DNA of 64,000 nucleotides. Origin: Pseudogymnoascus verrucosus (taxonomy: Eukaryota). Where the stretch lies: NCBI GenBank assembly GCA_001662655.1, contig KV460224.1. One strand, given 5' to 3'. Shown here piece by piece: positions 1-21,014 of the stretch. Numbering within the stretch: the first letter of the stretch is position 1; every line of letters begins with the position of its first letter. Made by a program: the position numbers and the translations under genes. Under the pieces are notes generated by a model. It searched no databases, was not told the origin of the DNA, and saw nothing but the letters and a program-made list of their open reading frames with translations.

Positions 1-388
1 CGCCTTAATACACGCAACACCCTTTAAAAAAGAGAGTGTGATAACTTACGCTCAATTATTTAGAAGCGTAGGGCACAGAATAAGGGTAAAAGAGCTGTTT
101 TAAAGGGTCAATTCCACATTTCAACAGAAGAACTCCAGTCGCAAGTTATAGAAGCAGAAGCAGCAACAGCAACAGCTTCACAGAGGCCTAGAACAACACC
201 ACGACCTATAAACGAGGCTATAATTGAGGAAATAGATGAAGAGAGCGAAGAAGAGCCTTCTGAGGATGATATAGATGAATTAGGGTGGTAGTAATTAGAT
301 TATTACGATTTTTTGAAGCTTTTAATAGGGTGGTCCTAACCCCACTACCGACATTACGCCATTACCGACATTACGCCACGACCTACGT
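1..388 (+). mobile_element. 3' end of a pogo/Fot1-like DNA transposon (copy A, truncated by the window edge)
   Basis: 1-290 is a diverged reverse complement of about 878-1175 (acidic transposase C-terminus). It ends in a TIR ...ccccactaccgacattacgccattaccgacattacgccacgacctacgt followed by TA (389-390). Confidence 0.85.
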
Positions 389-390
389 TA

Positions 391-698
391 TAGCTAGAGT
401 TAAGATGCATAATGACAGCCTAAATCATGTTATGTAGTTAATATCTAAATTGCTATATAAAATATTTATATAGTAAAACTTAAACTATATATAATTACTT
501 AATAAGAATAGCTTACAATCTAGCAAAATTAATAACGATATATTAATATATAAAGAGTAATAGTCTAAGAGGATTAAGCTTTATAAGCATTATTACAAAA
601 GTTATTAACGTTTTAATTTTGGTCATGTGACCTGGATTTTGGTGGGGTGAGTAAAGTAGCCGGTTACACCATGTAGCCGGTTACACCACGACCTACGT
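391..698 (+). mobile_element. AT-rich remnant ending in a third, related transposon TIR
   Basis: gtagccggttacacca x2 plus cgacctacgt, then TA at 699-700. Same terminal sequence and internal direct-repeat layout as the other TIRs; the body is very TpA-rich. Confidence 0.65.
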
Positions 699-777
699 TA
701 AGCCCCTATAAAGCTAACACTCGCTTTCCTATGTACTAGAACTAACTATCTTAATTAAGTGCTACGTTATAGAACTA

Positions 778-2714
778 ACGTAAGTCGTGGCGTAACGGGT
801 GTAATGGCGTAACGGGTGTAGTGGGGTTAGAACCACCCCATCAAAACCATTAAAAAATCGCAATAATTCAATTATTACTATGCTAATTCATCTACATCAT
901 CATCAGAAAGCTCCTCTTCGCTCTCCTCGCTCTCTTCTTCACCCTCACTATTAGTTAAGTTAACTATTGAGGTAGGTTGTGGTGTTTTTGAGATTCTTGA
1001 CCTCTGGGTTGCTGCCTCTGCCTCAATAACTTGCGACTGTAACTCTAGAGTTGAGATGTGGAATTGACCCTTCAAAACAGCTCTCTTACCCTTATTCTGT
1101 GCTCTACGCTTCTGAATAATTGAGCGTAGGTTATCACACTCTCTTTTTTGAAGGGCGTTGCGTGTATTAAGTCGTTCTGACTCATCTGCTAACTTATTGA
1201 TATATCGCTTNNNNNNNNNNNNNNNNNNNNNNNNNNNNNNNNNNNNNNNNNNNNNNNNNNNNNNNNNNNNNNNNNNNNNNNNNNNNTTCTTAAAAATATC
1301 ATACTCTATAGGAGTATGTAGCCGTTCTAATACTACTACGTCTATAGTAGGAATTGTAGCTGCTCAAATTACTGTTTGTGGCTAGAATGGCTATAGCCTA
1401 CTTCCTCTCTATGCAGAAGTAATATTTAAGTTAGAAAATGCTAATTCTCTTGCTTTTATATATACTTTGAGCTACTCTGCTTTCTGTATACGTAGGAGTT
1501 GCGCCTCATTTAGGTGCGAGAGAGCAGTTATAAGGTGTTGCTTTAAGGGCCTAAAAATTGAAATATCAAGTGGCTGTAGAACATGAGATGTATGAGGAGG
1601 TAGTATAAGGAGCAATATTCGATTTTGAATGCAGTGTGATATAAAGCTTCCACTTATATGGCTATTATGGCCATCGCAAATTAGGAGCCGTTGCTGTAGT
1701 CGTCCATTTTGTGTTGCTTTTGCTCTTGTAGAGGGCTCAAAAACGCGTTTTAGCTACTCTAATCCATGAAGATTGCTTGTCTATCCTTTTGTATTTGTAG
1801 AGAAGTGCCATTTTTGTATAACCTCCTTTGGAATCTAGCTCTGTAGTATGTTCTGTCCTTTAAAAATAATAAGGGGGTTAATAGCTGTTCTGTCCATGCA
1901 AATGCATTTAACAGCAGACACCTATTCCTGTTAGCTAGGATGAGCTTGAAAACGCGTACGAAGTGTAGAATCGACTATAATTCGTGTAGATTGCATAGTT
2001 CCAATTGAAAATCCAGTTTCATCTATATTGTAGGTGTTGTAGTTTTCGATTTTTAGCTCTGTTATAAGGCTCTTGTACGCGTCAAACCACCCCCTTAACA
2101 CCTGCTTTGTGACCCCATTCATCCTTTGTGCCTTAACTCTACGTCCTAACTTAACACGTAAGTTAGGATGCCTTTGAATGAATCGTGGAACCCAATCTTG
2201 CCTAAGAGGTAAGTTAGGAATGTGTTCTTGTTAAGTTTGTAGTTGTTGAGTTTGTAGTTGTTGAGTTTGTAGGTGTTGAGGCTGAAAAACGCAACACTTA
2301 TTTGACCGGACTTCATCTGCAACCTCCTGTAATATCCGATGGCTAGGAGCGTAGCCACTTATAGTAAGCTCTTTAATCCACTTTAGGAGGGTCTGCTCTT
2401 GATTTTTTGATAGGAGCTGCTGCTATTGGCGTGCTTCTACTCGTGTATGCCTTCCATTTACACGACATCGGAGGGTCTCTGCTGGTAGCCCTAGAGCTTT
2501 TGCAGCAGCATATATTGATTTATATTGATTTGATTTAATAGCTAATATAGCCTTTTGTATTTGAATTTCGCGTTCTTGAGCCTTTATACTCTTCTGACGG
2601 ACCATTCTAGCATAGTAGTAGTAGTAATAGTTAATAGGGTGGTAGGTTTGATGGGGTGGTTCCAACCCCACTACACCCGTTACGCCATTACACCCGTTAC
2701 GCCACGACTTACGT
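778..2714 (-). mobile_element. pogo/Fot1-like (Tc1/mariner superfamily) DNA transposon with both TIRs and an inactivated transposase (copy B)
   Basis: 68-bp TIRs at 778-845 and 2647-2714 with 1 mismatch, and TA target duplication at 776-777 and 2715-2716. Minus-strand fragments include a HTH (SIYAAAKALGLPAETLRCRVNG), the DDE-region motif YNIDETGF and an acidic tail. Multiple in-frame stops. Confidence 0.93.
1211..1286. other. assembly gap (run of N) inside the transposon
   Basis: 76 N characters. Confidence 1.
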
Positions 2715-3588
2715 TAGTGTTACAAAGGGCATAGATAGGATTCTGTATTAAATAGTAAGGATAGCGGCGGTAAGCCTAATTAGTAGAGAATATCTATTAA
2801 TAGTTAGCACGCACATGGTAGATAAATCTTTTAAGGAAGCAAACATGGTAAATAGATCTTTTGCCCTTAAACTAATGATTTTTATAACAAAATGTTAAAT
2901 CCCTAAACCACTATAGAGATGGACCACCAACGCTCTCTAGCACACTACAACTACACTCACGCACCTACCTCTATGAATAAGTAAGAGGGTGGCAGAGGCA
3001 TATATGCCAGACCTATGGCAATTGCCTCTGTCGAAAAGAGCAACCTATGGCAGGCGTTGCTCCATGGGAATCTTGCCACATGTTAACCGCTTTTATCCTT
3101 GCATTTCACAAACTGCTATACTATTTCCCGCATCTCGTGGCAGGCTAACTAACCCCTTCGAATGGCATAAAATTTACTAACGGGAGATGAAAAATGAGCG
3201 TGTCTAATGATGCTCGTTGGCTTTAATGGTAGTAAGCTATAACGTGCAGACTTACTACCACAGCCCCCTATGGTAGAGGACATGGGAAGAGGGTTAATAA
3301 CGAGGTAGTGAACGAAGTAAGGTGGTAGAAATGAGGCGATAGCGAGGTACCGACAGGAAGGTTTTAGGGGCTTTAGGGTCACGTGTAGGGTAGATAGAAC
3401 TTTTTTTCAGAGACAGCGCATATAGATCTTTATAGGGGCAAACAGGGTAAATAGATCTTTTGCCTTTAGTTTAAACTTTAGCTGCTAAAGTTGTAAAACA
3501 TACTTATTAATACGCAGGATCTAGTGGCACCTCAGCAGCTCTCTGTACTGCCTATATGCTAAGAATATACTATAATTGTTTTCTAGAT

Positions 3589-6406
3589 CTATGACTTTGG
3601 TGGCAATGGCTTAATTGGCCACTCATAGTCCCTGCTAAACCTCGACTTAAATACCCACTCGCCCATTCCTACGGTCTCTGTCTTCTCACCCGTCTCTTGC
3701 GGCACTACAACCTCTAAGGTCACACCGTATGGCACCAAAGCCCGCATCTCTATCGTATTCATCCCGTAGCCATCTTGCTTCGTCTCCCACGTGCACGAAA
3801 CAAGGCCGAAAGGCGTAACATGTTCCACGATGGCCCTGTCGAACTCTGCTCCAATCAAAGGCGCAAAGCAGCATTTTGTCCATCCAGGCGCCAAGCGCCG
3901 AAGCCCTGCAACACGCCCGTGGAGAAACGTTGCGACGGCACCAAAAGCGTAGTGATTAAAGCTTGTCATGTCGCCAGGGTTCACTGACCCGTCGGGTAGT
4001 AAGCTGTCCCAGCGCTCCCACATGGTTGTTGCATCCATTGTCACGGGATACAGCCAGGAGGGGCACGTCTTTTCGAGGAGCATTGCGTACGCTATATTCG
4101 TATGGCCCGTCCGTGCAAGGGCCTCGCACAAGAATGGTGTGCCAGCGAATCCGGTACCGATCCTGAATCCGTTCTTGTGAACGAGATACTTGAGACGATT
4201 GCCGGCGACCACTGCTTGTGTAGGTGTGAGCAGGTCGAAGCAGATCGCGAGGGCGTAGGCTGTTTGAGAGTCGGAGATGAGCCGACCGTTGGGTGACACA
4301 TACTCGTTCTGGAAGTCCTGACGTGTAGCGAGAGCGTCGCTAGAGAACTTTGCGCAGTCGGCGGTTTGGCCGACAATGCGTGAGATAAGAACCATGAGGT
4401 CTAGACTGTGGACAAGAAAGGCATTAGCGACGAGCTGGGCGTCGGTTGCTGATTTCCACGGCGCATCGGCCGGAGCAGCAGGGTCAAGCCAGTCCTACTC
4501 AAATACATTAGTTGGCAGATGTAGCACCAAGACGCAAAGAGACACAAATGCGTACCCCAAGTTGGAATATCGATGGGTCCCATAAGTGGGTTGTACCATT
4601 TTTGCAGCGGGGCACAATGTCTATCCACGTCGTCATGCTGGAGTACTGCTGTGCTAGAATCGTCGCATCTCCTGTCTCGCTGTATAGTTCCCACGGGGCT
4701 AATATGGTCACATCATGCCACACGGCACATGGCTTCCGTCGACACCAAACCGGGTCGACAATGGTTGAGTTGGGCGTCACCATTGCTGGGACGCCGCCTA
4801 GTACCTTCTGGTCGTATTCGACATCTACCAGCCAATTCTTCAACATACCGAAGCAGTCGTAGATCAGGGTTGCAGCTGGGGCAAACAAGGCCAGATCGCC
4901 AGACCAGCCCAGTCTTTCATCGCGCTGCGGGCAGTCGGTCGGTACGGAAAGGAAGTTACCACGCATGCCCCACCGGATATTTTGGTATAACTTGTTAAGC
5001 AAGGGATCAGAGCAATCGAAGGTGCCGGCGCTCCTCATGTCCGTGTGACAGACAACGGCTTTAATGGAGGCGCTCAGGTCGACTGTATCATCCCACCCGT
5101 CCACCTGCACATAGCGGAAACCGTGGAAAGTGAACCGAGGTTCGTAATGTTCGCCGCTTGCATCACCCTTAAGTGTGTAGACATCGATAGCCTTGCAGAC
5201 GCGCAGAGGTCGCGTTGCGATCTCCCCGTCCTCTAGTACTTCGACGTGCGAGAGGGTGATTTGGTGGCCGCGCGGTCCTATAATATTCTTTAGACGAACA
5301 TAGCCGACGAGATTCTGACCGAAGTCAAGGACGGTTTTGCCAGCTGGCGTGGTGATGCGTTGCACCGGATTGACCTCCTCAATACGCCTCACCGGCTCGG
5401 TAAAGCCCGTTGTGAGATTAGTGGTGGCTGGCAGGAAATCCATCACCACGACTGGTTCCCAGCGGGCGACTACGCTTATTTCAGCACTGTTTTCCAGACT
5501 GCTTGTTATTGACGCGGAAGCCGCTGGTGACGACCAGCCCGGAACCTCGAGCGTAGCATCATACTTCTCTCCATCGTAGATTTCGGCCAGGCGAATTGGT
5601 CCTCGCGTCACCTGCCATGAGCCGTCGGTCACAATGCGTTCCTCTCGGCCATCGACATAGCGGATCTCCAGCTGAGCCATCAAGGCCGTGTGTGGCCCCC
5701 AGATATTTCGATGGCCACCCTCAAAACCAATGCGCCCTGAGAACCATCCCTCCGCAACACGCACGCCTAGACAGTTGACGCCGCCTGCCAGGAGGGACGT
5801 TACATCATAGGTCTGGTAGGGGAGGCGAGCATCGTAGGCGGTCCAGCCAGGCGCCATGAAAATGTCGCCTACACGCTGGCCGTTGATCTCGGCTTCGTAG
5901 ACTCCTTGCGCAGTGATGTAGAGCCGCGCCTGATCGATGGTACCCACTATGCTAGCCGCCGGCAGGGAAAATTCCTGGCGAAACAACTGTTCCGGGTCCG
6001 ATACCGTGGTGTCAGATGCCCATGGCGCCGCGATGCGCTCACATTGCCAGTCTGCATGGCTGAGAAGGCCAATCTCGAGGCGGGCTGGTGCGCTCCAGGG
6101 CGTGTCTTGTCCTGCCGAATCCCATACCCGAACTCGCACTGAGATCTTCTCTCGCGCGCGGAGATGTCGATCAAGCGGCCATGGAACAAGATGAGATAGT
6201 GAGGACGCGCGCCGCACTGTGCAGAGGAGCTCGAGGGTTGAGCCAGAGCTCTCTTTCGAGACTTCAATGTCGTAGCTTTGCGGAGAAAAGGCACTGGAAG
6301 CGTTCTGGAATGTCCACGACAGGCGCGGCGCGGTGTCCTGAGTTACCAGCAGCTGTGTAGGCCCGGGGTGGTAGTGCTCAAAACGAAGGTCAATGATCGA
6401 TGCCAT
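3589..6406 (-). CDS. GH78 alpha-L-rhamnosidase, no signal peptide (2 exons; intron 4495-4555)
   Basis: Motifs LDFGQNLVG, FTFHGFRYVQV, PTDCPQRDERLGWSGD, TTMWERWD, MTSFNHYAFG. A GTACG...CTAAT...TAG intron joins FQLG to DWLDP in frame. N-terminus MASIIDLRFEHYH is not hydrophobic. Confidence 0.93.
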
Positions 6407-6743
6407 GATACCAGTGGGGTTCTGTGGCAAAGCCAGAGTGAGATTGGCCTTAACTGCTAGAGAGAAACAGACCAGGCAGGGAGAGTAAAGTAAGTACTGT
6501 ATAGAATAATATCAGGGCTTCTCACACTTCTCACTAATTCTAAACAGAAAATTAGACCACAATTCCGGCGAGCAGAGCAGTCATCGTAACTCTGATCGTC
6601 CATATTAAGAACTGTTATTAAACTTACGGATTAATTTGTAAACAGCTGACGCCTTTTACCTAGAGTCTAAAGCTATCCATAGCTATAGATAGCTTTGTTA
6701 GTTTGTAGTCATAGCGCAGCGATAGTGGAGCGAAAGCGCCACA

Positions 6744-6793
6744 TTTATCCGCGGTAGAACTGTATAAACTTACTTACCCCCGACGTTTATCCG
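6744..6793 (-). promoter_or_regulatory. two CGGATAAA motifs in the GH78/GH1 divergent promoter (candidate Zn2Cys6 activator sites)
   Basis: tttatccg at 6744-6751 and 6786-6793. The same 8-mer occurs twice in the second cluster promoter. Confidence 0.5.
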
Positions 6794-7181
6794 TCCCGTT
6801 AATGGTAGTATCAGATGGTTGAATGACTGGCAGTTCTGTTCTTTGATTCCATAACTACAACCACATCACATCACATCGTCTCTTGCATCCCGTTTCTTGA
6901 CAAATTCGCTCACTATTAACCCGAGCAGACCCTTTCCTCCTGCCTTTTTGTCTTGTTTTCCGGCCTAGCGACCAACTCTGTCCCCGATCCCAGCCCCGCT
7001 ACCCTTAGTTATGGATCCATCCTAGGTCTACAAAATATTCCCTACTAGGATCTAGAGCCTGATGTCTAATATTTGAGAGATGCTACACCCCAGTTCGTTT
7101 TTAATTTCTTACCTCCTATATTTGTGCTGGAGATAGTCTATATTCACTCATTTGGGTTCATTAACTGAAGGTTCGCTCAGC

Positions 7182-8756
<1,575 letters not shown>

Positions 8757-9528
8757 TAATGATTCTACGTACTAGACAGAAAAATCAATAGAATGATAGG
8801 AAGGTTAACAGGGTTAGCCTTTAGGGCTATGCATATAAATTTAGGGACAGACCGTTGCCTATGGAAGCTTTAGCGACCAACTCGAATGATGCAAATTACA
8901 TGTGACTGTCTTACTATTCCCCGTCCCCCTGTCTGACTGTAACGACCCGGAAAAGTATTACTAGAGCTTGGCAGGATCAGTCACTAAACCTGAACGCGCT
9001 ATTCCGCCTAACTTAGGTGCGGTGTAACAGTAAAAAAAGTAGATCGTTACAATCATACAGGGTGGGGGGGGGATGGGGATTAATAGAAGAATGGGATATC
9101 ATGGAGGTAATCACGGGAAGATTAGCCATCGCGGTATAAAAACATTGTCCCGTTTCTAAGTCATCAATGACGGAGAGAGGATGCAGATGTTAAACATGCG
9201 TCGGAGCTAGGCGATGCGTAATTAACACCAGTGTAAGATTATTATCTTGTCATAATTATCATTTGTTGAGGGGGAAACAACACTACGCCATTTGGAACTG
9301 AGGCGAGACTAGGATAAATTCACAAAGTCTAGAGATGCGATTAAGTTAAATGCACTTGTCGATATCATTCGATGTCAGGTGCATTGTCTATCAAGACTTG
9401 GCAGTGGATATATAGTGCAATCAATACATTGTATTCACAATTCTACTTAATGAGTAAATCAGCTACATCAGCCCGCAAACTGAATATCGCAGCATTAGGC
9501 GATCATGCGTATGCTATTCTTCGATTGC

Positions 9529-11347
9529 TTACTCAGCCTCGTGCTCTTTAAGGACACGTTGGGTTGCGGTCTCCGTCTTGTGGAATCGCCATGGCTTGAT
9601 ACCTCGCTCGAAAAGTTCGTCTAGTTCAGCAGCAGAGCGGCTAGAGGAGGGTCAATTCGGATTTCCACAAATAAAGGGGGCATTCTGAACTTACCCTGTT
9701 GTCTCAGGGATTAAGAACCACATCCCGACCATAAATGGCGCGCCGACACCAACGTAGAACCAGGCGGTCTTAAGTCCCCAATTCCACTTGTTAATATTAG
9801 TCATATACGGAACTAGGACGCTCATGACAACGCCAATGACGCAGGTCGCTGCGCCACCAAACCCTGCAGTATAAGGACGGAGGCGCTGGGAAGAAATTTC
9901 GCCAATGAAGCCCCAACCAGTGGCACCGTTGGCGGCCAGTCCGACATCTGTAAAAAGTTAGATAAATCTTCAGAAGTATAGACCAGAAGGAGAGAATTGC
10001 AAGAGATACGTACTCCAGAGACAGGCGAAGAGGATAAAAACGTAGGATGACGCATTAGTAGACGGTACGACTCCTAGAATACCAACGGCGATGCAAGCAA
10101 GCCAAGAAAGTGTTGTACCACAGCAAGCGATATATCGACGGCCGACTCTATCAGCACAAAGAACTACGACGATAACGGTCGCAATCTGGATAGATGACGT
10201 GATAACCTTGATTCTGAAAGGATTTTTGAGACCCGCCTGTTGGAAGAAGTATGTTCCAAATGTGCCGAAGAGGGAGAGGCCGATGAACTGCTGAGTGAGG
10301 TTGGTCCACAGTGTGATCACAGTCCGAATGCCGTTCACGCCTTGGAAGATGGCGTACCACTTTTCTCTTCGCTGCTCGACGGCAAGAGCGCGCTCGTGTT
10401 CGACGTTCAATAGAATGATCTCGAGTTGTGCATCGACATTATAATTCTCGACGCCCCGGTTGAGGTACGACAGGGATTTCTTGGCGAGCTCCATCTTCCC
10501 AGCTGTGACGCACCACGCGGGAGACTCAGGGAGGAATAGATAAATGGTGAGCATCAAGCCGATCTGTGCCCATTGCGAATATAGGGCGTTGAGGTAGTTG
10601 TGCGGGTTGCTAGCATTAAGACTGTTTAGTGCCACCTGAGCGAAGAAAGAGCCAAGGGTCCACCAAAAGCTGTAGAGCATCAACAAGCCACCCCGGATAC
10701 GAGGAGGAGCACACTCGGAAATATATGCTGGGATAGTAGATTGAAGACAGCCGACACCAATACCAGCTAGAAGTTTGCCGACCAACCAGCCCTCCCAGCT
10801 GCGGGTAAGTGTCTCGGCAAGGATAGAGCCCACAAGAATGAGCCAGTAAGTATACATGGCGACCTTCCTGCCGAATTTGACAGTGTAGAAGGACAGCCCA
10901 ACCATGCCGATAATCTGACCAACAGATACGACAGAGGACCAGCCGCTGAGAATGGGCGAGGCGAGGGCGGGGCTACCATTAGCGTTTTTCTCAGTTGCGA
11001 ACTGCTTAACAAAGCCCGCGTTCGCGATGATACTGGCGTTGATGCTAAACAAGAAGAATGTTAATAATAGAGCCTAAGCACAACACAAAAGAAGTTCGGT
11101 GAAAGCTAACTCACCCGATCTGATAACCGTCTGTTGCAGCACTAAAGGCAGCAGCAAAGCAAAGAGCAGTGGCCATTTTAAAGTGCTTTACAGTTTGCCA
11201 TGGAGTCAAATTTTCATAGCCGGTGATGGCCTGACCCTTAGTAGCAGCATCGGCAACGACATCTGAGCCTTTGATATCGCCATCCTCCCCAAATTCGTTG
11301 TGCTCTGCGGTATTAGTCGGCTTATCGCTGATGGGCTGAGAAGCCAT
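9529..11347 (-). CDS. MFS sugar porter (maltose/oligosaccharide permease-like), multi-exon
   Basis: Many hydrophobic segments; motifs DGYQIG, KFGRK, YISECAPPRIRG, LPESP, DRVGRR, PET..RSAAELDELFE. GT-AG introns near 11047-11112, 9950-10013 and 9641-9694. Confidence 0.92.
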
Positions 11348-11488
11348 GGCAAAGAATAGTAAATTCAGTCAATGGCCGCCGGAAGTTGAAAGGTGTCGTT
11401 GAAAGGTGTCGTTGAAACAAGAGGGATGGTACAAGGAAGAGATGTAGAGAAGTTGCTCTATCTAATGCACCGATATCTTTCTGACATT

Positions 11489-11672
11489 GCGGGGATGTTA
11501 AGCTCCTTATACTTCTTGGACATGCCACTTAACTCGCATGAAAATAGCACGTAGCTCATTCAACCTTTCATTTCAATATTGGAGCTCTAGCATGCGGGGA
11601 AGGAAATGCGGGGATGTAAATGCGGGGAAGGAGACACCGAAGTGTCTAGGCCGAGCCGTAGGTTTAGCGGGG
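11489..11672 (+). promoter_or_regulatory. cluster of GCGGGG (SYGGRG, CreA/Cre1-type) sites
   Basis: GCGGGG at 11489, 11594, 11608, 11622 and 11667; three are spaced exactly 14 bp apart. Confidence 0.55.
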
Positions 11673-11750
11673 TTTCCAATAGTGGATCCGCAACCTCATA
11701 GAATGTAAATTATTGAGTGTCATGGGGGAGACACGGGGTGGGTGTCAACC

Positions 11751-11837
11751 TTGAAGTTTATCCGCGTTTTGCCGTTTTCTCGAAGCACCACAGTTCATCC
11801 GCGGTTGAGACCACAACCCCATGTTGAAGTTTATCCG
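11751..11837 (-). promoter_or_regulatory. 14-bp direct repeat ttgaagtttatccg containing CGGATAAA
   Basis: Copies at 11751-11764 and 11824-11837, with the variant agttcatccg between them. Confidence 0.5.
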
Positions 11838-12349
11838 AATGTTATACGAATGTTACCAAAGGTACAAAATACGCTAGCATACACTTCATGCACGCATTCC
11901 CGACTGTGGCTCCCATGGAAAACCATACTTCTGGTATTTCTCACTGTCGTGTCTAAATATTGGTAATTCGAATGAAGTTAGAATGTGGGGTAAAACCATT
12001 TCCCGGCGTGATAAAGTTGTATGGGGTTAAGAACCGTTTCCCCGCGTTCTAACTTCATTCGAATTTATCAATATTTGGATGCTACAGCAGCCAGGGCGTA
12101 TGGATGCTATTACAGACTTCAAAGGACTGAAGATATACCGAGTGAGAGACAAGAGTGCGGAGATAGGGCTGAAGTTAATCACAAGGAAATATCGCAAGGA
12201 GAGACGAAAAAAAAAAGGATTGAAATTAAGATACTATAAGTTATAACTCAAGCTGCTCCCAAATTCTATATTGTCCAAAACGCATTATTCGTCTAGGGAT
12301 TCTTCTGTGACGCTGAATGGTAACCGACAGAAGGAGCAGTAGGGACATT

Positions 12350-14209
12350 ATGTCTTTCAATTTCGTGAAGAGAATCATCTTCAGTGCTGCCGCTGTCGCT
12401 GTCGCTGTCGCTGCCATCCCGCCGCCAAATCCGGAGTTCTTCGAGATAACTCAGCTGTCTCTGCCACCCGCCATCAATACCACGAGTGTGGGCGCCTGCA
12501 CAGCATCTATAAATCCTCGCCGCACCGGCTGTATCTACTACCAGGAAAACTACGACTTCCAGTCTGGCGACTTCACTCCCGATGGCAAACACGTCGTTGT
12601 CAGTGTTAACTTTACCGGTGCTCCTGCCGCACCAGACCCTGCCAGCATCTACTCCGGCGCACAGGTGATACTTATTACGGCCGATGGCACCAACTTCCCT
12701 AATGGCGATAGCTGGAAGTGTATGAGCTGTGCTGTGCCCACCCAAAACAAGCAATCTCTCGATCCCGTGATCGACTATCCCCACGTCTTCCGGAGTGGCA
12801 CCAAGATCTTGTGGGGACATAATATCCTCGACTGCAATGGCCAACCGCTTGCTGATGAGTCGTGCACGCCTACCCGCACACATATCTACCCTATCTTCTG
12901 GCCCGTCTCCACGAATGCCTTCGCAGCCGGCGGATCTCCGCGTGAGATGCGTCTCCATCCAGATGATACGCACATTTTATGGAGTTCCTTGTCCAACAGC
13001 GGTCAATCCACGTTCACGGGGAAGCTCCAATTCAATGCCAGACCCACTAACGGGTCCCTTCGCGCCCCACGTTATGATCTCATTCAAGTCAACGTCCTAG
13101 CCCGCGCCAACAGCACCCCTGCTATCTATGCGGACGGCAATCAGATCAAGATCAACCCCCAGCCTCTCTCACTCGGCGAACTTCGTGGCTGGTCTGGCAA
13201 TGGAGAGGAGATCATTTATCTTGGTTCCAACGTCGAGGCTAACAACGTCGACCTCTACGCCATTCACGTTGTGACTGGTGCGATTCGCCGCATTACTAGC
13301 CACCCCGAGTATGCTGATCCGATCGTATCGTCTCCCGATAATCGAAATTATCTCATCATGGACACCCGCGGCTCAAATCGTCAGATGTGGATGGCCGGCA
13401 TGCGCGGTATCCCCCCTATCATAGATATTGTGGTTACGCTCCTCGCAGTGTCGACCCGCAACAATGGCCCGCGTCGCTTTTTCCAGCCCATTCTCCTCGA
13501 CCAGTTCGGCGATCGCAGCGATATCGACTACTATGGCCAACGTATTAATACTGAAGGCGACCTTTCTAATGGCTCTGTCAACGATCCAAACTGGAACGGC
13601 CGCGCCGACGCCGGTTTCTCTCTTGATAGCACCAAAATCGTGTATTGGCAAGCTCTTGTCACATCTCCTGCCTGTGGCGGCGTCAACCCGCTCAAGTGCC
13701 CAGCCTCCACGGCCCAAGGAGGTAGCAACTATCGTGTTATGCTCGCAAAACGCACCAGCCGTGCACCTACAAGGCCCGTCCCAGTCTTTAAAATTCCTGA
13801 CATCATCCCCTGGGCAACACCCTTCCCACCCGGAGCGTCTGTCCCTGTCGATAAGACACTTGCACCTGGGGACTATACCCTCTATGGCAAGGCACATGGC
13901 TTCGCGAATGTTACGCTTACTTCGTCGAGCGTCGCTATTAGATACTCCAACTTTAGCGACGACTATCGGCACATCATAGACGGATACGAGAACGCTACCT
14001 CATCGGTTAAGCCCCCAAATTACTATGACGTTCATGTCGACTGGTTCTCAGATATATTCCAATCTGGTGCCGTATTTGGTACTAAGAAGACGAGCCCCGG
14101 CGGGTTCCATGCAGAAATAGATGCATTTTTGAATATTTTCTCCGCGAATGGATCACTTACGACGACGATCAATGGAGTGGAATATTTACAACCCCTTAAT
14201 TTTTCTTAA
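12350..14209 (+). CDS. secreted saponin-hydrolase-like protein (intronless, about 619 aa)
   Basis: Signal-peptide-like MSFNFVKRIIFSAAAVAVAVAA. Segments PPPNPE..LSLPP..GACTASINPRRTGCI, REMRLHPDD, ELRGWSG, HPEYADP and RNNGPRRFFQP match my recollection of fungal proteins annotated as saponin hydrolase precursor. Confidence 0.75.
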   Translation: MSFNFVKRIIFSAAAVAVAVAAIPPPNPEFFEITQLSLPPAINTTSVGACTASINPRRTGCIYYQENYDFQSGDFTPDGKHVVVSVNFTGAPAAPDPASIYSGAQVILITADGTNFPNGDSWKCMSCAVPTQNKQSLDPVIDYPHVFRSGTKILWGHNILDCNGQPLADESCTPTRTHIYPIFWPVSTNAFAAGGSPREMRLHPDDTHILWSSLSNSGQSTFTGKLQFNARPTNGSLRAPRYDLIQVNVLARANSTPAIYADGNQIKINPQPLSLGELRGWSGNGEEIIYLGSNVEANNVDLYAIHVVTGAIRRITSHPEYADPIVSSPDNRNYLIMDTRGSNRQMWMAGMRGIPPIIDIVVTLLAVSTRNNGPRRFFQPILLDQFGDRSDIDYYGQRINTEGDLSNGSVNDPNWNGRADAGFSLDSTKIVYWQALVTSPACGGVNPLKCPASTAQGGSNYRVMLAKRTSRAPTRPVPVFKIPDIIPWATPFPPGASVPVDKTLAPGDYTLYGKAHGFANVTLTSSSVAIRYSNFSDDYRHIIDGYENATSSVKPPNYYDVHVDWFSDIFQSGAVFGTKKTSPGGFHAEIDAFLNIFSANGSLTTTINGVEYLQPLNFS

Positions 14210-14546
14210 TAGATAAAATAATTAAGATGAAACTAAGTTATTGTTAGCTTTATAAGGGCTCGAGTCTTAGAAGGAAAAAACTTGTCTATTTCTAAACGTC
14301 TAATTCTACAAGGGGTTACTAAATGCTAAGAATCTCAATCGTATACTCTTCAGAATAGATGCTATAAAAATTCACCGTTCCAACCGGATTTCAAATTCTC
14401 ATAGTAGCTTAAATCTTATTCGTCTCTGTTATAGTGAATTAATATTAAATTATCAAGAAGGGGTACAATAGAGTCCTGGTTATCATATCACTTAACCCTA
14501 TTTAACCACCTTACGGGATGACCCTTATTCCACCCTAGCTCCCTCA

Positions 14547-16033
14547 TCAAATATACTCCCACCGATCACCCCCTATTAAATTCAGCGCATTCCTCCGCCC
14601 CTTCGCTGCAATATTTGCCTCTATCGTCTTCGCTGCTAATAAATCTTCTGCCTTCCTTGCCGCTTCAATGTTGATAATTTTCACACGGTCTAGTAGCTCC
14701 TGCGGTGCTACTACAGGGAACACATTCCTCGGCATTTCGCCCAACTCGCGCCAAATTCCATAGTGCCTTGCGGCCTTTGTCACGCAGTTGAACCCGTCGT
14801 TTGGATAGTAGAGAAACTCATTCGCGCAATGGTCAATGAAACCGCGGCGGGTGAGGAGGGGCATTTGGTTGCCGGAGATGGAGTTGCCGGTGGGGATAGA
14901 ATCGAGGATTTTAGAGAAGGAAGGTGGCACTATATTGCGGAGAGAGGAGAAGGAGGATCTTATGTCAGTGTTAGGGGCGGAAGGTGGGCGGGGTGCCATG
15001 ACATGGTCGATGGAGAAATTAATATATTCTTGCCTGAGCTGGTAGTCCGCAAAATCCTGTGGGTTGTAGCCGAAAACGGGTTTAGACATTTGATTTTTCC
15101 CTATATTAGAGCGATGGAGATTAGGAAGGGCTTTAAAGGAGCGGAGTGAGAGAGCGGAACGAGACGTATAAACGTACATGCGTTCTGCTCAAGGCTGTAG
15201 CCAATAATATCAAGGAAGCCAGAGTACTGCTCTGGCAGTAATAGGCCGGTGCGATTAGTATCCAAATGGTTGAAGATTTCGTTGAAAAATGCCATGCCGA
15301 AAGCTGTCGGTGCAGTGTTGTTATAAAACGGCTGCCACCCCGTTGAAGCAGCGGAGTGCGTCTGCTGTAGCTGAGGCCGCGGTGGTTGTTGTGGCGGCTG
15401 CTGGTACTTTTGCTGTTGCTGCGGTTGAGAGGGAACAGGTCCTTGGGAAGGCTCATATGTGTATTGTGGTGTTTGCGGGCCAGGGGTCGAGTTTGAACGC
15501 GACGTATAAGCATATGGCGAGGACCGCGAAGGGCCAGCCTCTGGTAGCACTGTGTTTGTGCTCTCGGATGGAGCTGCGTAGTTTGTTTGTGAAGACGCCG
15601 AGCTTGGGATTTCAGGTGCAGGAGGTGCATGGCTAGTTTGCGGTGACGCTGCATGGGGACTTGCAAATGGCGGCGGCGTTGTAGACGCACTCACCGACGG
15701 CTGTGGTGGATATCGTTGAGGCGGCAAGCCTTCACCCCCAACCTGTTTCAGCGAGGCCAACGGCAACTGCGTCGACACCGGTCGTCTCTGCGTTGAAGCC
15801 GCTGTGTTGATTGGTTGTAGAGGCGGCCGTGGAGGGAGCTCTGGCGGAGTGCGAGGGGGGTAGCCGCTGTATTCGTAAAGGAGGGAGGGGTGGGAGGCGA
15901 GGTGGGGTCCGGGGGAGCGTGAGAGGATGTAGCAGGAGGCACAGAAATGAGAGGGACACGTGTTGCAAGAGATACGGGGGGAGGTGGGAGGAATAGGGAA
16001 TGTGCAGGAGGTGCAGTGGAAGGGGAGGGACAT
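14547..16033 (-). CDS. hypothetical protein: Cys/His-rich N-terminus, Pro/Gln-rich linker, EF-hand-like motif (intron 15101-15177)
   Basis: CTSC...CNTC..HFCASC...H...H, then low-complexity P/Q sequence, then FNHLDTNRTGLLLPEQ. A GTACGT...CTAAT..TAG intron joins the two ORFs in frame. Confidence 0.75.
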
Positions 16034-16376
16034 GGTGAGGTTGGGCGTGGTTGGTAAGGGTTGTATGTGAAGAAACGAAGGGCGATGAGTTGTTAGTGAA
16101 CAAACTATTGGGGTTTGATGACTTATAGTAATGAGCCTCTTGGGAATAATAGTCACGCTGTATTAACATGTAGGCGTATGCGTAGGCGCCTTTATAATTT
16201 ATATGTTCTGCCTTACCGCCGCCACAATATTGAATAATTGACGCTCTAGCAAATAGTTCGGCCCTCCTACTACTAATATTGGTGAGCTGGCTGGCCCTAC
16301 AGCCAATAGGAGCATTGGGCACTAACAGTTTAGCCCTCCCTAGTCTAGCCCCCTAGATAATGCTTGTAGGTTGGTA

Positions 16377-16660
16377 CGAGAGCTTCTAGAGGCGGAACAA
16401 GATGCCATGGAAAGTCACGGGTCGCTTCTTGAGGATGGGAAAATTCTTCATTGCGATAATTCTAAGAATAATATCATCATTACAGAAGCTGCCTTAAAAG
16501 GGGAGCCGAGAGGGACACTAATTAAGCTAGACTTGACAGAGGAGTTAGGCAGTATGCTAAGCGGAGCTAGTCATAACACAAGCACTATATAGTTCATGGT
16601 GATTGAGGTGCTGCAGGGCAAGGGTCACAGGTCATGGCTTGACCTCGAGTCGTTTTTCTT
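16377..16660 (+). pseudogene. decayed fragment of a FunK1-type fungal protein kinase
   Basis: ELLEA..DAMESHGSL...KILHCDNSKNNIII...GTLIKLDL...SGASHNTSTI*FMVIEVL...DLESFF resembles ILHRDISxNNI / LIDLDLA / RTGTxQFMAIEVL / HDLESFF. Catalytic motifs are degraded and there is an in-frame stop at 16590. Confidence 0.75.
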
Positions 16661-16817
16661 ATTAGGAACAGACACTATAGAGAATACAATCGCCTATACT
16701 AATCAAAGCCCTCTCTCAGACTCGTGCACTATAATCAATCACACTAGCACCAGGGAAAAAAATCACTCTGCACATGGAATACAATCACAGTAACTCATTC
16801 AATTCGTAGAAACCTGG

Positions 16818-17710
16818 CTAGCTACTTATACCTACCCCCCTAGTTCTCCTCCCCCCACGGCGCATATGCCTCCCGCCATACGTATCCCTGCACCCAAACT
16901 TGACCAGATAAGGGCTTATGGTCGTTGTGCCATCGACAATAAGTGTCCCATCCGGAGCCTTGATCTTCAGCTCGTAGTATCCCGCTCCGCCCGAGTTATC
17001 CCAAGAGAACCTAATCGGATAGTACTTGCCCTTTACTAGCGTGACCTTGTACTCTAGCGGCGCCGAGCCGACTGGAGTGTACGTCGCCTCCAGATTAGCG
17101 TTTGCGCGTGTGTAGCCAGAGTAGGCGTTTGGAGCGAGCCAGAGCAGACTCAGGTTATCGGCAATGGGCGCGGTAAAGCTGTACTCTCCATCCTGGTGCG
17201 CGTACAGATAGCCTCTATGGTTCACCGCAACGTATTCCCAGTTTGCGGCGTCTGGCCGTAGATTGTATGGGCATCTGCGACTCCGATTCTCGTAGTCGTT
17301 CCCTCGTAGTATGGCTCCGTACGCTTCATGACCACGAGGTTAAAGTTTCCGTCGTTAGGTCCTAGGTATGTAATGTCATTCGGGAAAAATGCAAACTCAA
17401 ACCCAGCATTGCCACAGGACGTGTCTGGGAGAGATGCTGGCTCTTGGACGTCATCTTTGCGAGCATCTTTACAGCAGCCTCCTCCACCGCACGCTCCAGC
17501 ACATCCTACACTATGGGCGCTGTCGAAGCTCGAGGCGATGACGAGGGGGTTGTTGTGATGGGATCCTAGGTAGCACTTCTTTGTACGTGCTTGATAGTCG
17601 ACGCTGTGGCAAGGACAATGGTGGCGCAGGTTTCCATGCCTGAAAATTAGCAAGTCTCCTGATGACAGAATGGCAGACTTACATTCTTGAAAGTTCTGGG
17701 CAGATGACAC
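16818..17710 (-). pseudogene. frameshifted GLEYA/PA14-domain adhesin-like gene
   Basis: SCGNAGFEFA in one frame and VNHRGYLYA..GEYSF..ADN..LLWL..NAYSGYTRANA..GKYYPIR in another, with the frame switch near 17225-17250. Upstream Cys-rich part is decayed; no clear start. Confidence 0.7.
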
Positions 17711-17967
17711 CGTGAAATACCTCGTCCCGTGCCGTTTCCCAACGCCCTCATCACATCGCTGGCCCTCGCTGGCTCATACAGCCTATTTCTCTATTCCTCT
17801 AGGAAATTTAGGGGCCCCTGCCGCCCCTGCCGCCGCGGCTTCTGCTGCTGCGCAGCCAGTCTCGGTTGCTTGGACTCCATTTGGGAGCTGGCTATTACAG
17901 CCATCCAGATATAGAGTCGTCTGGGTATGTCTTTGTCTATATTACCAACGTCCGCTAACACCTATAG

Positions 17968-18316
17968 CCGTTCCCCCTCGTCCTCGCAACCAACAATGGG
18001 CCCGCACCAGCTGGCATGCCAGCTCCAGCTGTCGGTACGTCTTAATCGTACTCTACACATACATAATATACTAAATATTCTAGCCTGCCCTGCCTCGTGT
18101 GTGGCTGCAGCTGCCACTGTGACTGTGACCTCCCCGCCGGTTACAACAACAACGACAACAACACTTTCGGGACCGCTACCGACTGAAATTGCAAATGGAG
18201 GTGCATTCAGCGCAGGAGGAAATCTGCCTAAGCCAGATCCAGTGTTTGATGAACAAGGTAACTGGTCTTGTTGTATCGGGCCATTTTCCGGTGGTAGCGG
18301 TGTTGGCTGCACTTGA
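17968..18316 (+). CDS. possible exons of a small Cys/Thr-rich protein (5' end unclear)
   Basis: Intron-like 17925-17967 and 18034-18082 give PFPLVLATNNGPAPAGMPAPAV-ACPASCVAAAATVTVTSPPVTTTTTTT...WSCC...GCT*. Confidence 0.35.
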
Positions 18317-19059
18317 TGTTATGAGACTTGAATTAGTGAAATGGGAATTTGAATTTGGTGACGAAGCTATACCCATGAGATACACATTTTGATGTTGTAG
18401 ACACGCCATAAAACTATGGCATTGGCCGACTTTGAATCCTGAACCCTCTGGCAGATTGTTAAACCTATGCTGAGCACCAAGTCTCCTATGCCAACGTGCT
18501 AAGCTTTATATCTCCATCCCCTGGTTTTGATCTTCCTGTCAACCCCTTGCCGAGCTTCCTACCAATTGGCGTAAAAAGCAGCGCTCAGAGTAATTGGAAA
18601 CAGCAGCTAGTTTTTTGCTGCAAGGTAGATGAACGAGGGTTAACTTTTGCTACAATTCAATTACATTTAGTATGATGAAAGTGCATGCATTGGATAAACC
18701 ACCATCCAATATTGTATTTGACTTCAACTCGTCGTGTTTTTTTATTCTATTTCCCGGCTGATGGGTGCAACACCAGCCCATCTCTTCCCCACCCCCCTTC
18801 TTTCGCACTGTCTAGTTCTACTTGTGTTGCCGTTGAAGACATTTTCTCCTATGCCGAGCCGGTGTATAAAAAATCATGAGGTAATGTAAAAAAAAGAAAA
18901 TCATGAGATCGTTGAAATCCCCAGGACGCCCGCCAAACTTGTTGAAGTTGGCCCGCGCCGCGCTAAATGCAAGAGCCGTGCCGCCCAGTGCAATTGCTCA
19001 GAGAGCACCTGGACGGCCGGAAAATATGAGTTGATCCTGAAATATTTGAAAACTACCAA

Positions 19060-21014
19060 TTATGCCACTGGAAGGACGTTCGATACAATGGCCGGTGGGG
19101 CCTCTTCGACTTTGTCCCCGTTCGTAGCTGGCGCAGCAGCCGCCGCAGGCGCGGGGGCAGCTGCAGGTGCAGCAGTACCCTCAGCAGCCTTGTCAATGTT
19201 TGGGACGGTAAGGCCCTCAAACAGCGAAAATAGCGCATCGCGTTGATGGAAGTCGTTATGGACTAAATTATGTTAGTAAACGTGAAGAGAAAACAGAGCC
19301 AATTTATAGACATACCGATATTAACGAGGTAAAACGTCTCCATAACTCGTTGAATAACATTGCGACTTGGGCTCGAGGAGTCATGGCAATGGGCCCAGTC
19401 CATTCCTAGACGGAAAGCCTCATCCTTCCAGGCCAAAAAGCTGATCGTTTCCACGATGGTTGGCTGAACGATTTCCTTTCCGGGGAACACACCCCAGGTG
19501 ACGGCATTTGGAGCATCGCTAGGAGCATTGGTTCGTAGCGTGCCTGACTTTGTAACCGCATAATAAGTCACCTCGGGGTCTCTCGCGATTCTATCAAGCA
19601 GCTCATCGATAAGCTCTGGTGCAACTAAAAGCTCGAGGTACGCCTTCTGGTAGACGTATCCATTCGCAGGTCCCCATCCATAAACTGGGTGAGATGACTT
19701 GACTCCATCCACGGCAGGTTGCGAGTTGATCGTAAGCAGTCCGCGCTCGTTGAGTTCCACAAGTTGGTTCTTAATAACATCGGCTTCGTTCGAGATCGGT
19801 GCCTCACTCCATGGCAAGCTCTCAATGTCGGCATTCAAGTATCGCAGGAATACATTTGCAATGTCCTTGACTGACTTCGGCTCGCCCCACAGCTTAATGT
19901 TCTGCTCATTGCTACCCTTCAACCCAATTCCGTATGCATCAAGTTCGCCAAAAGCCGGAGACCTCGAATCACCCCATCTGCCGTTGGGGAACTCATCCCA
20001 CTCCTGAGTTCGCATGACGTAAGACTTGTTCCTGTTGCGCCAGAAAATAGGTCGTACATCCTCCCCTCTTCGCCCAAGGCCAAGAGATTGGCGCCATGGG
20101 AGAGCCTGCTTCAGCGGGCGCTCTTCAGATGGAAGCATCTCGAGCTGTTCAAGAACACCGCGTGTGGCCTGGGCCAAGTTCATCGTGTAGAAATGCAGGT
20201 GGTTGATCCCAGACTCAAGGATAGAGCGACACATGTCAGTCACTAAACCTCTCCCAATCTCCCTGACTGCTGCATCATCGTTCTTGACGGGCTCCATGGC
20301 TTCAATCCATCCAGGGGGGATCTTCGCATTCATGTGGTTGCACCTTCTCAGAAAGCTGGCGTATGTGGAAATGGGCATGATGCCTGGGATGATTGGAATG
20401 GTGATGCCCTTCGCCCTAACTTTGCGGACCCAATCCAAGAAGTTGGGAACATCGTAGAACATCTGAGTCACAATGAAAGTTGCGCCCTCGTCGACCTTTT
20501 CCTTCAGGTGGTCGAGCAAAAGATCCGCATCTGTTTGGTCGTCACAGCCTTCTGGGTATCCCGCAACACCAATATCGAAGTGATTACCGTAAGTTTTGCG
20601 GATATATTTGACAAGATCTCTCGCGTACTGGAATCCTTCGTCGGTAGCCACCCATTTTTCTTTCTCGCGAGGGGGGTCCCCACGGAGAGCCAGAATGTTT
20701 GTGCAGCCACCCTTGTATGCATTCTTGAGGGCATCGTCGACCTTCTCCTTGCCCATGTCCGTACATGTCAAGTGCATGCATGTCTCCAACCCGTAAACCG
20801 ACTGTGCCACGCTGACCATTTCACATGTCAGTTGCGCATGGCGGCCGCCAGCACCCCAGGTTATGTCAATGAAGCTCGGTCCCAGCCCATGCATTCTGTC
20901 CATACGATCGTACAGGTTCTGGACACCTTGCGCAGTCTTTGGGGGGAAGAATTCGAACGAGAAAGTAGGCTTCCCCGCCTGCTCCCCCTGGTTTAGCATG
21001 TCTTTGATATGCAT
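19060..21014 (-). CDS. MET13: methylenetetrahydrofolate reductase (intron about 19263-19315)
   Basis: FSFEFFPPKT, ALRGDPP, VAGYPEG, TQMFYD, WDEFPNGRWGDSRSPAFG, NAVTWGVFPG. Last exon begins VHNDF. Confidence 0.95.

Follow-up and report, generated by a model that had tools for sequence, protein, structure and literature searches.

What a fungus might do with the sugars that it strips from a plant saponin is the question raised by four adjacent genes at positions 3589-14209 of the 64,000-nt stretch analysed here (the window), which comes from Pseudogymnoascus verrucosus contig KV460224.1 (assembly GCA_001662655.1). The fate of such released sugars is flagged as unstudied in the available part of a review (PMC8120277). 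The genes encode a predicted GH78 alpha-L-rhamnosidase, a GH1 beta-glycosidase, a sugar porter of the major facilitator superfamily (MFS) and a putatively secreted protein assigned to the Sdn1 ('saponin hydrolase') family, called the hydrolase below. Their physical linkage is conserved beyond background synteny, the mark of a fungal catabolic gene cluster; the cluster is well supported as a conserved unit, and the function read from its sequences is plausible. The reading that we favour, with about an even chance of being right, is that the four genes form a conserved and probably co-regulated catabolic cluster for rhamnose-capped, glucuronic acid (GlcA)-anchored glycosides, with soyasaponin-type triterpenoid saponins as the model substrate, working by release, import and dismantling.

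Linkage of the four genes and their shared promoter elements

As the initial annotation had it, the four genes are intact and lie in two divergent pairs, GH78(-) GH1(+) and MFS(-) hydrolase(+): gene models with canonical GT..AG introns gave four reading frames free of stops (Table 1). A signal peptide had been ascribed to the last gene only, and hydropathy agrees, since the best 10-residue Kyte-Doolittle mean, a heuristic and not SignalP, reaches 2.79 for the fourth protein versus 0.35-0.70 for the GH78, GH1 and MFS proteins. Contigs of near-identical strains from four sequencing runs are DNA-like; one possible RNA run matches GH78 in four short stretches, none of them over an intron, and is uninformative on expression or splicing.

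Table 1. Genes and divergent promoters of the cluster, with their positions in the window
Feature	Position	Strand	Details
GH78 alpha-L-rhamnosidase gene (predicted)	6406->3589	-	exons 6406-4556 and 4494-3589; 61-nt intron 4555-4495; 918 aa
GH78/GH1 divergent promoter	6407-7181		two CGGATAAA sites
GH1 beta-glycosidase gene	7182->8756	+	60-nt intron 8557-8616; 504 aa
MFS sugar porter gene	11347->9529	-	introns 11114-11045, 10013-9948 and 9694-9641; 542 aa
MFS/hydrolase divergent promoter	11348-12349		two TTGAAGTTTATCCG, four TGCGGGGA, 29-nt inverted repeat
Sdn1-family ('saponin hydrolase') protein gene, predicted secreted	12350->14209	+	intronless; 619 aa from second Met

The proposal had also been tied to conserved linkage in other genomes, and such linkage was found in metagenome contigs, in locus tags and on shared contigs. 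A metagenome scan with the hydrolase alignment recovered 39 loci, in 22 of which the sequence upstream of the hydrolase extends for 2.8 kb or more; seven of these 22, five of them distinct (L001=L017, L004=L006, L010, L011 and L014), hold the MFS gene and, flank length permitting, GH1 and GH78, in the order and orientation of the window, at identities to it of 57-85% (hydrolase), 69-83% (GH1), 67-85% (MFS) and 57-65% (GH78).

For named genomes, linkage was read from locus tags and shared contigs, obtained by MFS and GH78 exon searches interlocked with the list of hydrolase homologues. In Aspergillus fumigatus the hydrolase, MFS and GH78 genes are KXW98_003580, 003582 and 003584, with equal spacing in four further strain annotations, and the order hydrolase-x-MFS-y-GH78, x and y standing for two intervening genes of section Fumigati, is that of at least five strain annotations. 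Neighbouring tags were likewise found in A. lentulus (ALT_0040 / ALT_0042), A. calidoustus (ASPCAL15114 / 15116, on a 15.7-kb contig), Fusarium nematophilum (ACJ41O_012209 / 012211 / 012212), F. decemcellulare (FDECE_3653 / 3656 / 3658), Cadophora sp. M221 (IFR05_003889 / 003892), C. gregata (ONS95_006233 / 006237) and Colletotrichum jinshuiense (EsH8_VII_000141 / 000142). Among the 120 hydrolase homologues listed, 17 share a contig with a listed MFS homologue and 23 with a listed GH78 homologue; 31 share one with either, 14 of them on contigs shorter than 150 kb, and at least nine contigs hold all three among the listed homologues. Ilyonectria, too, is among the genera in which locus tags or shared contigs bring the genes together. 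In addition, a 1026-aa model from Colletotrichum abscissum fuses a GH1 (66% identical to the window's and ending at the shared intron donor) to the hydrolase, which we read as an annotation artefact spanning the cluster.

Altogether, the linkage is seen in Eurotiomycetes, Sordariomycetes (including Sordariales), Leotiomycetes (Helotiales) and Dothideomycetes (Pleosporales), with the order rearranged in some, and its persistence over four classes while gene order changes points to selection on clustering rather than to inertia.

Two single loci add to the picture of how the cluster varies. In the Dothideomycete Dendryphion nanum, the hydrolase (P0015, 77%) and MFS (P0127, 82%) genes share one 217,517-bp contig and nest among Leotiomycete sequences, while a second hydrolase of the same fungus, P0100, is of the Pleosporales type; this nesting, together with the second copy, hints at horizontal transfer of the cluster. 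In L001, a GMC oxidoreductase gene (12084-13880) stands directly downstream of the hydrolase, at a place where the window has none.

The two divergent promoters have a sequence element in common. The 8-mer CGGATAAA has four copies in the 64-kb window, all in these promoters and two in each: at 6744-6751 and 6786-6793, on the minus strand, between GH78 and GH1, and, between MFS and hydrolase, inside the 14-nt sequence TTGAAGTTTATCCG, which stands there twice without mismatch (11751-11764 and 11824-11837) and holds the 8-mer on the minus strand. Among 5000 random pairs of segments of equal size, 20 shared an 8-mer present at least twice in each and nowhere else. All four copies in L001 also lie in cluster promoters, and the extended form CGGATAAACTTCAA was found again in both lineages; the element, in the form CGGATAAAC(T)T, is a candidate for regulator binding. 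CreA-like GCGGGG sites are enriched, with 7 of the window's 57 in the promoters, which make up 2.8% of the sequence. The MFS/hydrolase promoter further holds four of the window's five copies of TGCGGGGA (at 11488, 11593, 11607 and 11621), and its segment 11590-11632 carries three ATGCGGGGA copies in a 14-bp tandem, with a fourth 105 bp upstream (11488-11495; CreA-like SYGGRG sites); a CCCCTGAnnnTGCGGGGA footprint is retained in the MFS/hydrolase promoters of L004, L010, L011 and L014.

The relatives also carry candidate regulators. A gene with a Fungal_trans domain lies between GH78 and GH1 in L001/L017, and a different Fungal_trans gene just downstream of the hydrolase in L004, L006, L010, L014 and L022; the window's cluster has a Fungal_trans regulator at neither position. 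No Zn2Cys6 motif turned up when the regulator regions of the relatives and window positions 1-20000 were scanned with a regular expression, although introns may split this motif. Taken together, the promoter motifs and the relatives' regulators suggest co-regulation and glucose repression of the cluster. The Aspergillus nidulans rhamnosidase RhaE is rhamnose-induced through RhaR, and the RhaR site CGG-N11-CCG is not enriched in the window (14 sites versus 14.8 expected), with one in the MFS/hydrolase promoter and none in the GH78/GH1 promoter.

Some further promoter features stand apart from these elements. The 7-mer CCCCTGA was considered as a cluster motif and rejected: it occurs in 10 of 12 promoter regions of relatives and in neither window promoter, with weak enrichment per locus (p 0.009-0.29), and is treated as a lineage-specific footprint only. 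The 29-nt inverted repeat of the MFS/hydrolase promoter has its arms at 11965-11993 and 12037-12065, is 90% complementary and has a 43-nt spacer; two near-identical strains have contigs in which 37 nt within the repeat (11990-12028) are missing.

Inherited synteny as the sole reason for the four genes lying side by side, with no functional coupling, is very improbable. The hydrolase does occur unlinked elsewhere, which speaks for such a reading, but membership persists while order changes (Fusarium has GH78-x-hydrolase-MFS), the position of the regulator varies (the GH78/GH1 gap in L001 versus downstream of the hydrolase in L004), the two promoters have an exclusive motif in common, and the association has a parallel in bacteria.

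The putative hydrolase and its bacterial homologues

Homology of the fourth protein to saponin hydrolases, the other point on which the initial annotation had made its proposal depend, was also found, by way of automatically named homologues. The protein has 789 homologues at E<=1e-3, mostly fungal and of 610-650 aa, and many of them, outside its own clade and at 55-61% identity over 93-99% of the length, are named 'Saponin hydrolase' (UniRef) or 'saponin hydrolase precursor' (NCBI). The chosen start at the second Met agrees with homologues of 617-618 aa. Soybean saponin hydrolases named Sdn1, Sda1 and Sde1 were reportedly obtained from Neocosmospora vasinfecta, Aspergillus oryzae and Eupenicillium brefeldianum, respectively, by Watanabe and colleagues in 2004. 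Like these, the window protein has about 620 aa and is predicted to be secreted, and its homologues bear their name; unlike them, it belongs to a clade on a long branch, and the likeness is known from names rather than from direct alignment. The N. vasinfecta protein was not found in the sequence clusters of ten Hypocreales and Penicillium representatives. To our knowledge, and in the literature searched, the genomic context of the three enzymes has no description. No Pfam family matched the fourth protein, and its family is not known to have a CAZy class.

The one-step release of a triose, which the initial annotation had taken as known, is backed by the table of a review, in which the N. vasinfecta enzyme turns soyasaponin I into soyasapogenol B and a triose (PMC8120277), and by the sugar chain at C-3, given in the accessible text of another paper as GlcA, then galactose (Gal) or arabinose (Ara), then rhamnose (Rha) or glucose (Glc) (PMC12238454). 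As far as the available parts of two further papers go, family members are up-regulated during soybean infection and are described only as infection-induced secreted proteins (PMC8896106, PMC5241000).

The N-terminus of the window protein reads MSFNFVKRIIFSAAAVAVAVAA and is hydrophobic and signal-like; near-identical strains lack 6 nt at 12391, in frame, within the stretch that codes for the alanine/valine-rich signal region. An alignment of 20 fungal sequences has eight invariant cysteines. In a 96-sequence alignment of fungal and bacterial members (the latter at 39-41% identity), C61, C72, C135, C138, C453 and C461 are invariant, as is a seventh, C183, with C173 nearly so; invariant as well are 11 acidic residues (including E210, E288, D312, D334, D349, D370, D395, D399, D423 and D431) and many arginines, and the window hydrolase retains all of the family-invariant residues of this alignment.

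An AlphaFold model built from the 96-sequence alignment (predicted local distance difference test, pLDDT, 90.9; predicted template modelling score, pTM, 0.89) places a six-bladed beta-propeller at residues ~34-485 and a beta-sandwich at the C-terminus; an earlier model from the 20-sequence alignment (pLDDT 66, generic Foldseek matches) was discarded. The top fold match is the TolB-like 2ojh (Z 19.8, root-mean-square deviation 3.0 over 254 residues), and the same entry is the only match of a sequence search of the Protein Data Bank (PDB) with the fourth protein (E 0.045). Sialidases and a GH93 arabinanase follow below it at Z 14-16, among many unrelated propellers, a comparison with clan GH-E (GH33/34/83/93) that consists of fold scores only. 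Searches with the whole model, the C-terminal domain not having been searched alone, gave no fold match above generic six-bladed propellers, and neither the PDB sequence search nor the fold search gave a solved relative of the family.

In a FastTree phylogeny of 145 hydrolase sequences, for which the supports are SH-like only, the topology roughly tracks taxonomy, and the window sequence lies in a 13-row clade on a stem of 0.51 substitutions per site. As a separate observation, an unlinked hydrolase paralogue in a Penicillium-like locus (L007) adjoins a squalene epoxidase homologue (12542-13882; PF08491, E 1.2e-75), a possible link of that paralogue to triterpenoid or sterol metabolism.

In each of the five bacterial loci with long flanks, a distant homologue of the hydrolase (38-41% identity) has a GH106 rhamnosidase gene and a GH2 gene as neighbours. 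L030=L036, L033 and L037 have a common array (about 1-11900) of GH106-GH2-GH39-GntR-SDR-oxidoreductase-homologue, while L031 has GH106, GH2, TonB-dependent receptors and a sigma/FecR pair. Pairing with a rhamnosidase and a beta-glycosidase of other families is what would be expected if the family acted on a chain of rhamnose, hexose and uronic acid.

The same loci are an argument for another target, namely a different glycan with Rha and GlcA, such as the side chains of arabinogalactan-proteins or gum arabic (Rha-GlcA-Gal) or fragments of pectic or microbial polysaccharides, which we consider improbable. The company of GH106, GH2, GH39, GntR and TonB-dependent receptors is a layout typical of polysaccharide-utilisation loci (PULs), and the fungal hosts are general saprotrophs. 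Nevertheless, the fungal cluster has no enzyme for a polysaccharide backbone, and the only activity reported for the family, as far as the table of the review shows, is on soyasaponins (PMC8120277).

A proposed route from a released chain to single sugars

Under the favoured reading, the secreted beta-propeller enzyme would cut the bond between glucuronide and aglycone and free the oligosaccharide en bloc, a release that would also disarm the saponin; the MalP-like MFS symporter would import the freed chain, whole or trimmed; and GH78 would take off the terminal alpha-L-rhamnose before GH1 cleaves the beta-linked hexose that follows (Gal or Glc), so that glucuronic acid would be set free. If a Rha/Glc-Gal/Ara-GlcA chain is released whole, a rhamnosidase and a beta-glycosidase are exactly what is needed to obtain monosaccharides from it.

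The GH78 protein matches all five Pfam rhamnosidase domains (Ig_Rha78A_N, Bac_rhamnosid_N, Bac_rhamnosid, 6H and C; E 1e-55 to 4e-11), which run end to end across both exons and include the (alpha/alpha)6 catalytic domain. Its N-terminus has no signal-like hydrophobic stretch, and its best solved relative is the A. terreus rhamnosidase 6gsz (E 1.6e-141), of which residue 3 aligns to residue 3 of the window protein; an alignment that starts there points to a GH78 subfamily without a cleavable leader. Like RhaE and 6gsz, orthology left aside, the window GH78 is of the long, bacterial type and without a signal peptide. Beside these results stands an unevenness in one relative, the Cadophora-like L001, where the N-terminal part of GH78 (1-960, against window 5390-6406) is 57% identical to the window and the adjoining GH1, MFS and hydrolase are 83-85% identical, while a Sordariales-like and more distant GH78 reaches 65% over the whole exon; uneven evolution or gene replacement may account for the low value.

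The GH1 protein matches PF00232 at E 1.8e-130 and has no signal-like N-terminus; the catalytic motifs TFNEP (NEP, acid/base) and ITENG (ENG, nucleophile) are present, and DNFEW is restored by the intron model. Its solved relatives are the fungal beta-glucosidases 8in1, 6kht and 5jbo. Relative to the window, near-identical strains have 16 nt inserted at position 8742, in the repeated tail at the C-terminus of GH1. The MFS porter matches Sugar_tr at E 1.4e-52, and its homologues are mostly, and automatically, named 'MFS alpha-glucoside transporter', 'general alpha-glucoside permease' or 'maltose permease (MalP)'; against solved hexose carriers the matches are weak (E ~1e-17).

The place where trimming would occur invites a different topology for the same substrate, in which GH78, perhaps together with GH1, leaves the cell by non-classical secretion and works extracellularly, and the MFS protein imports monosaccharides or a disaccharide only. 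We regard it as unlikely. The absence of a cleavable leader in the 6gsz subfamily and the naming of some MFS homologues as hexose transporters are in its favour, whereas most MFS homologue names are those of di- or oligosaccharide permeases. Fungal GH1 enzymes without a signal peptide are, moreover, generally cytosolic. The behaviour of A. nidulans RhaE, in the available part of its description, cuts both ways: this long GH78 has no signal peptide (SignalP 0.081) and was purified in glycosylated form from culture filtrate, yet it was 83-91% intracellular when expressed in yeast (PMC3312857).

Another alternative, somewhat unlikely in our view, concerns the substrate and would make GH78, GH1 and MFS a general rhamnoglucoside module for flavonoid rutinosides and neohesperidosides (rutin, hesperidin, naringin), with GH1 as a beta-glucosidase and the hydrolase as a loosely coupled add-on of different or wider substrate. 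The closest solved GH78, 6gsz, and RhaE are used on flavonoid rhamnosides or p-nitrophenyl-rhamnoside, the closest solved relatives of GH1 are beta-glucosidases, and among the 120 MFS homologues listed 30 share a contig with a GH78 homologue versus 17 with the hydrolase. Against this, the hydrolase is kept beside the trio in four fungal classes, and in bacteria the hydrolase family is found, independently, with a rhamnosidase and GH2. Furthermore, released rutinose needs a rhamnosidase only, which would leave GH1 without a role unless whole glycosides were imported.

The favoured release-import-dismantle route resembles several known systems without coinciding with any of them. MAL-type clusters of yeasts and Aspergillus combine a permease, an intracellular glycosidase and a regulator; the window cluster is like them in that a MalP-like permease adjoins signal-less glycosidases, relatives carry a Fungal_trans regulator and the promoters hold CreA-like sites, and unlike them in having two different glycosidases and a secreted enzyme that would make the imported sugar, with a substrate that is not a storage alpha-glucan. 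The cellodextrin route of Neurospora, with CDT transporters and the cytosolic GH1-1, offers the same sequence of oligosaccharide import and cytosolic GH1 cleavage that is proposed here, but its genes are not clustered with secreted enzymes, and the sugars differ. The analogy to bacterial PULs drawn in the initial annotation holds for the logic of extracellular release, import and completion of the breakdown within the cell, and the bacterial homologues of the hydrolase sit in such loci; it does not extend to the parts, as the fungal cluster has neither a SusC/SusD-like pair nor an operon and relies on an MFS symporter and divergent promoters. The classical saponin-detoxifying glycosidases, avenacinase and the tomatinases, belong to GH3, GH10 and GH43 according to the accessible portion of one review (PMC8120277). 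The window protein is like them in being, as proposed, a secreted enzyme that disarms saponins by deglycosylation; they cleave off individual sugars and fall into known GH families, in contrast to an unclassified six-bladed propeller with proposed en bloc removal and linkage to genes of uptake and breakdown.

Several observations weigh against the favoured reading. Fifteen of the 22 loci with sufficient flank are without the partner genes (the five bacterial loci, Pleosporales-like copies, a Eurotiales paralogue clade and distant paralogues), and hydrolase paralogues unlinked to the cluster exist. The cluster hosts (Pseudogymnoascus-like fungi, Aspergillus fumigatus) are saprotrophs and not legume pathogens. 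Membership of the Sdn1 family follows from automatic UniRef and NCBI names rather than from alignment with the characterised Sdn1, Sda1 and Sde1, and the long stem of the window's hydrolase clade suggests that specificity may have shifted. The closest studied GH78s, RhaE and 6gsz, have no signal peptide and are nevertheless extracellular and glycosylated. Finally, the names of the MFS homologues are automatic, some of them being 'hexose transporter', and transport of an acidic trisaccharide by a porter of this type is unproven.

The locus belongs to a known kind of system, the fungal catabolic gene cluster. The initial annotation knew of no description of the arrangement but could not confirm that it is new, and no prior description of this cluster was found in the full-text literature searched, which most subscription journals lie outside. 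A wider reading, possible though short of an even chance, would make the Sdn1 family an unclassified glycoside-hydrolase family of six-bladed propellers that removes uronic acid-anchored chains en bloc and stands at the entrance to an ancient module of release, import and dismantling, extending from bacteria (GH106, GH2) to four fungal classes (GH78, GH1, MalP-type permease), moving as a unit, as in the possible transfer into Dendryphion, and turning a plant defence into a carbon source.

The linkage gives an orphan family, with no Pfam model and no solved relative, a genomic context that predicts the sugar composition of its substrate and its partner enzymes, and it suggests that deglycosylation of saponins is nutritional as well as defensive. 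It also supplies a candidate rhamnosidase, beta-glycosidase and transporter for a defined acidic trisaccharide, all of which could serve the making of sapogenols and rare oligosaccharides. As Aspergillus fumigatus and numerous other fungi that are sequenced and well studied carry the cluster, these proposals are directly testable, for example through co-expression in public data.

Genomic surroundings of the cluster

The closest named kin of the window proteins are in Pseudogymnoascus (89-91% identity), followed by Cadophora, Leptodontidium or Leptodophora (76-85%). No related genes were seen in the flanks of the cluster within the window. Downstream lie a low-complexity gene with strong GC skew and a weak DUF7514 match and a GLEYA/PA14 adhesin-like open reading frame (together at 14547-17339), followed by MTHFR, NOG1 and DDI1. 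Upstream, positions 1-3000 are AT-rich (36-41% GC), hold no recognisable gene and directly border the cluster. One A. fumigatus assembly gives its cluster genes the locus tags 000007-000009, possibly a sign that they lie near a chromosome end.

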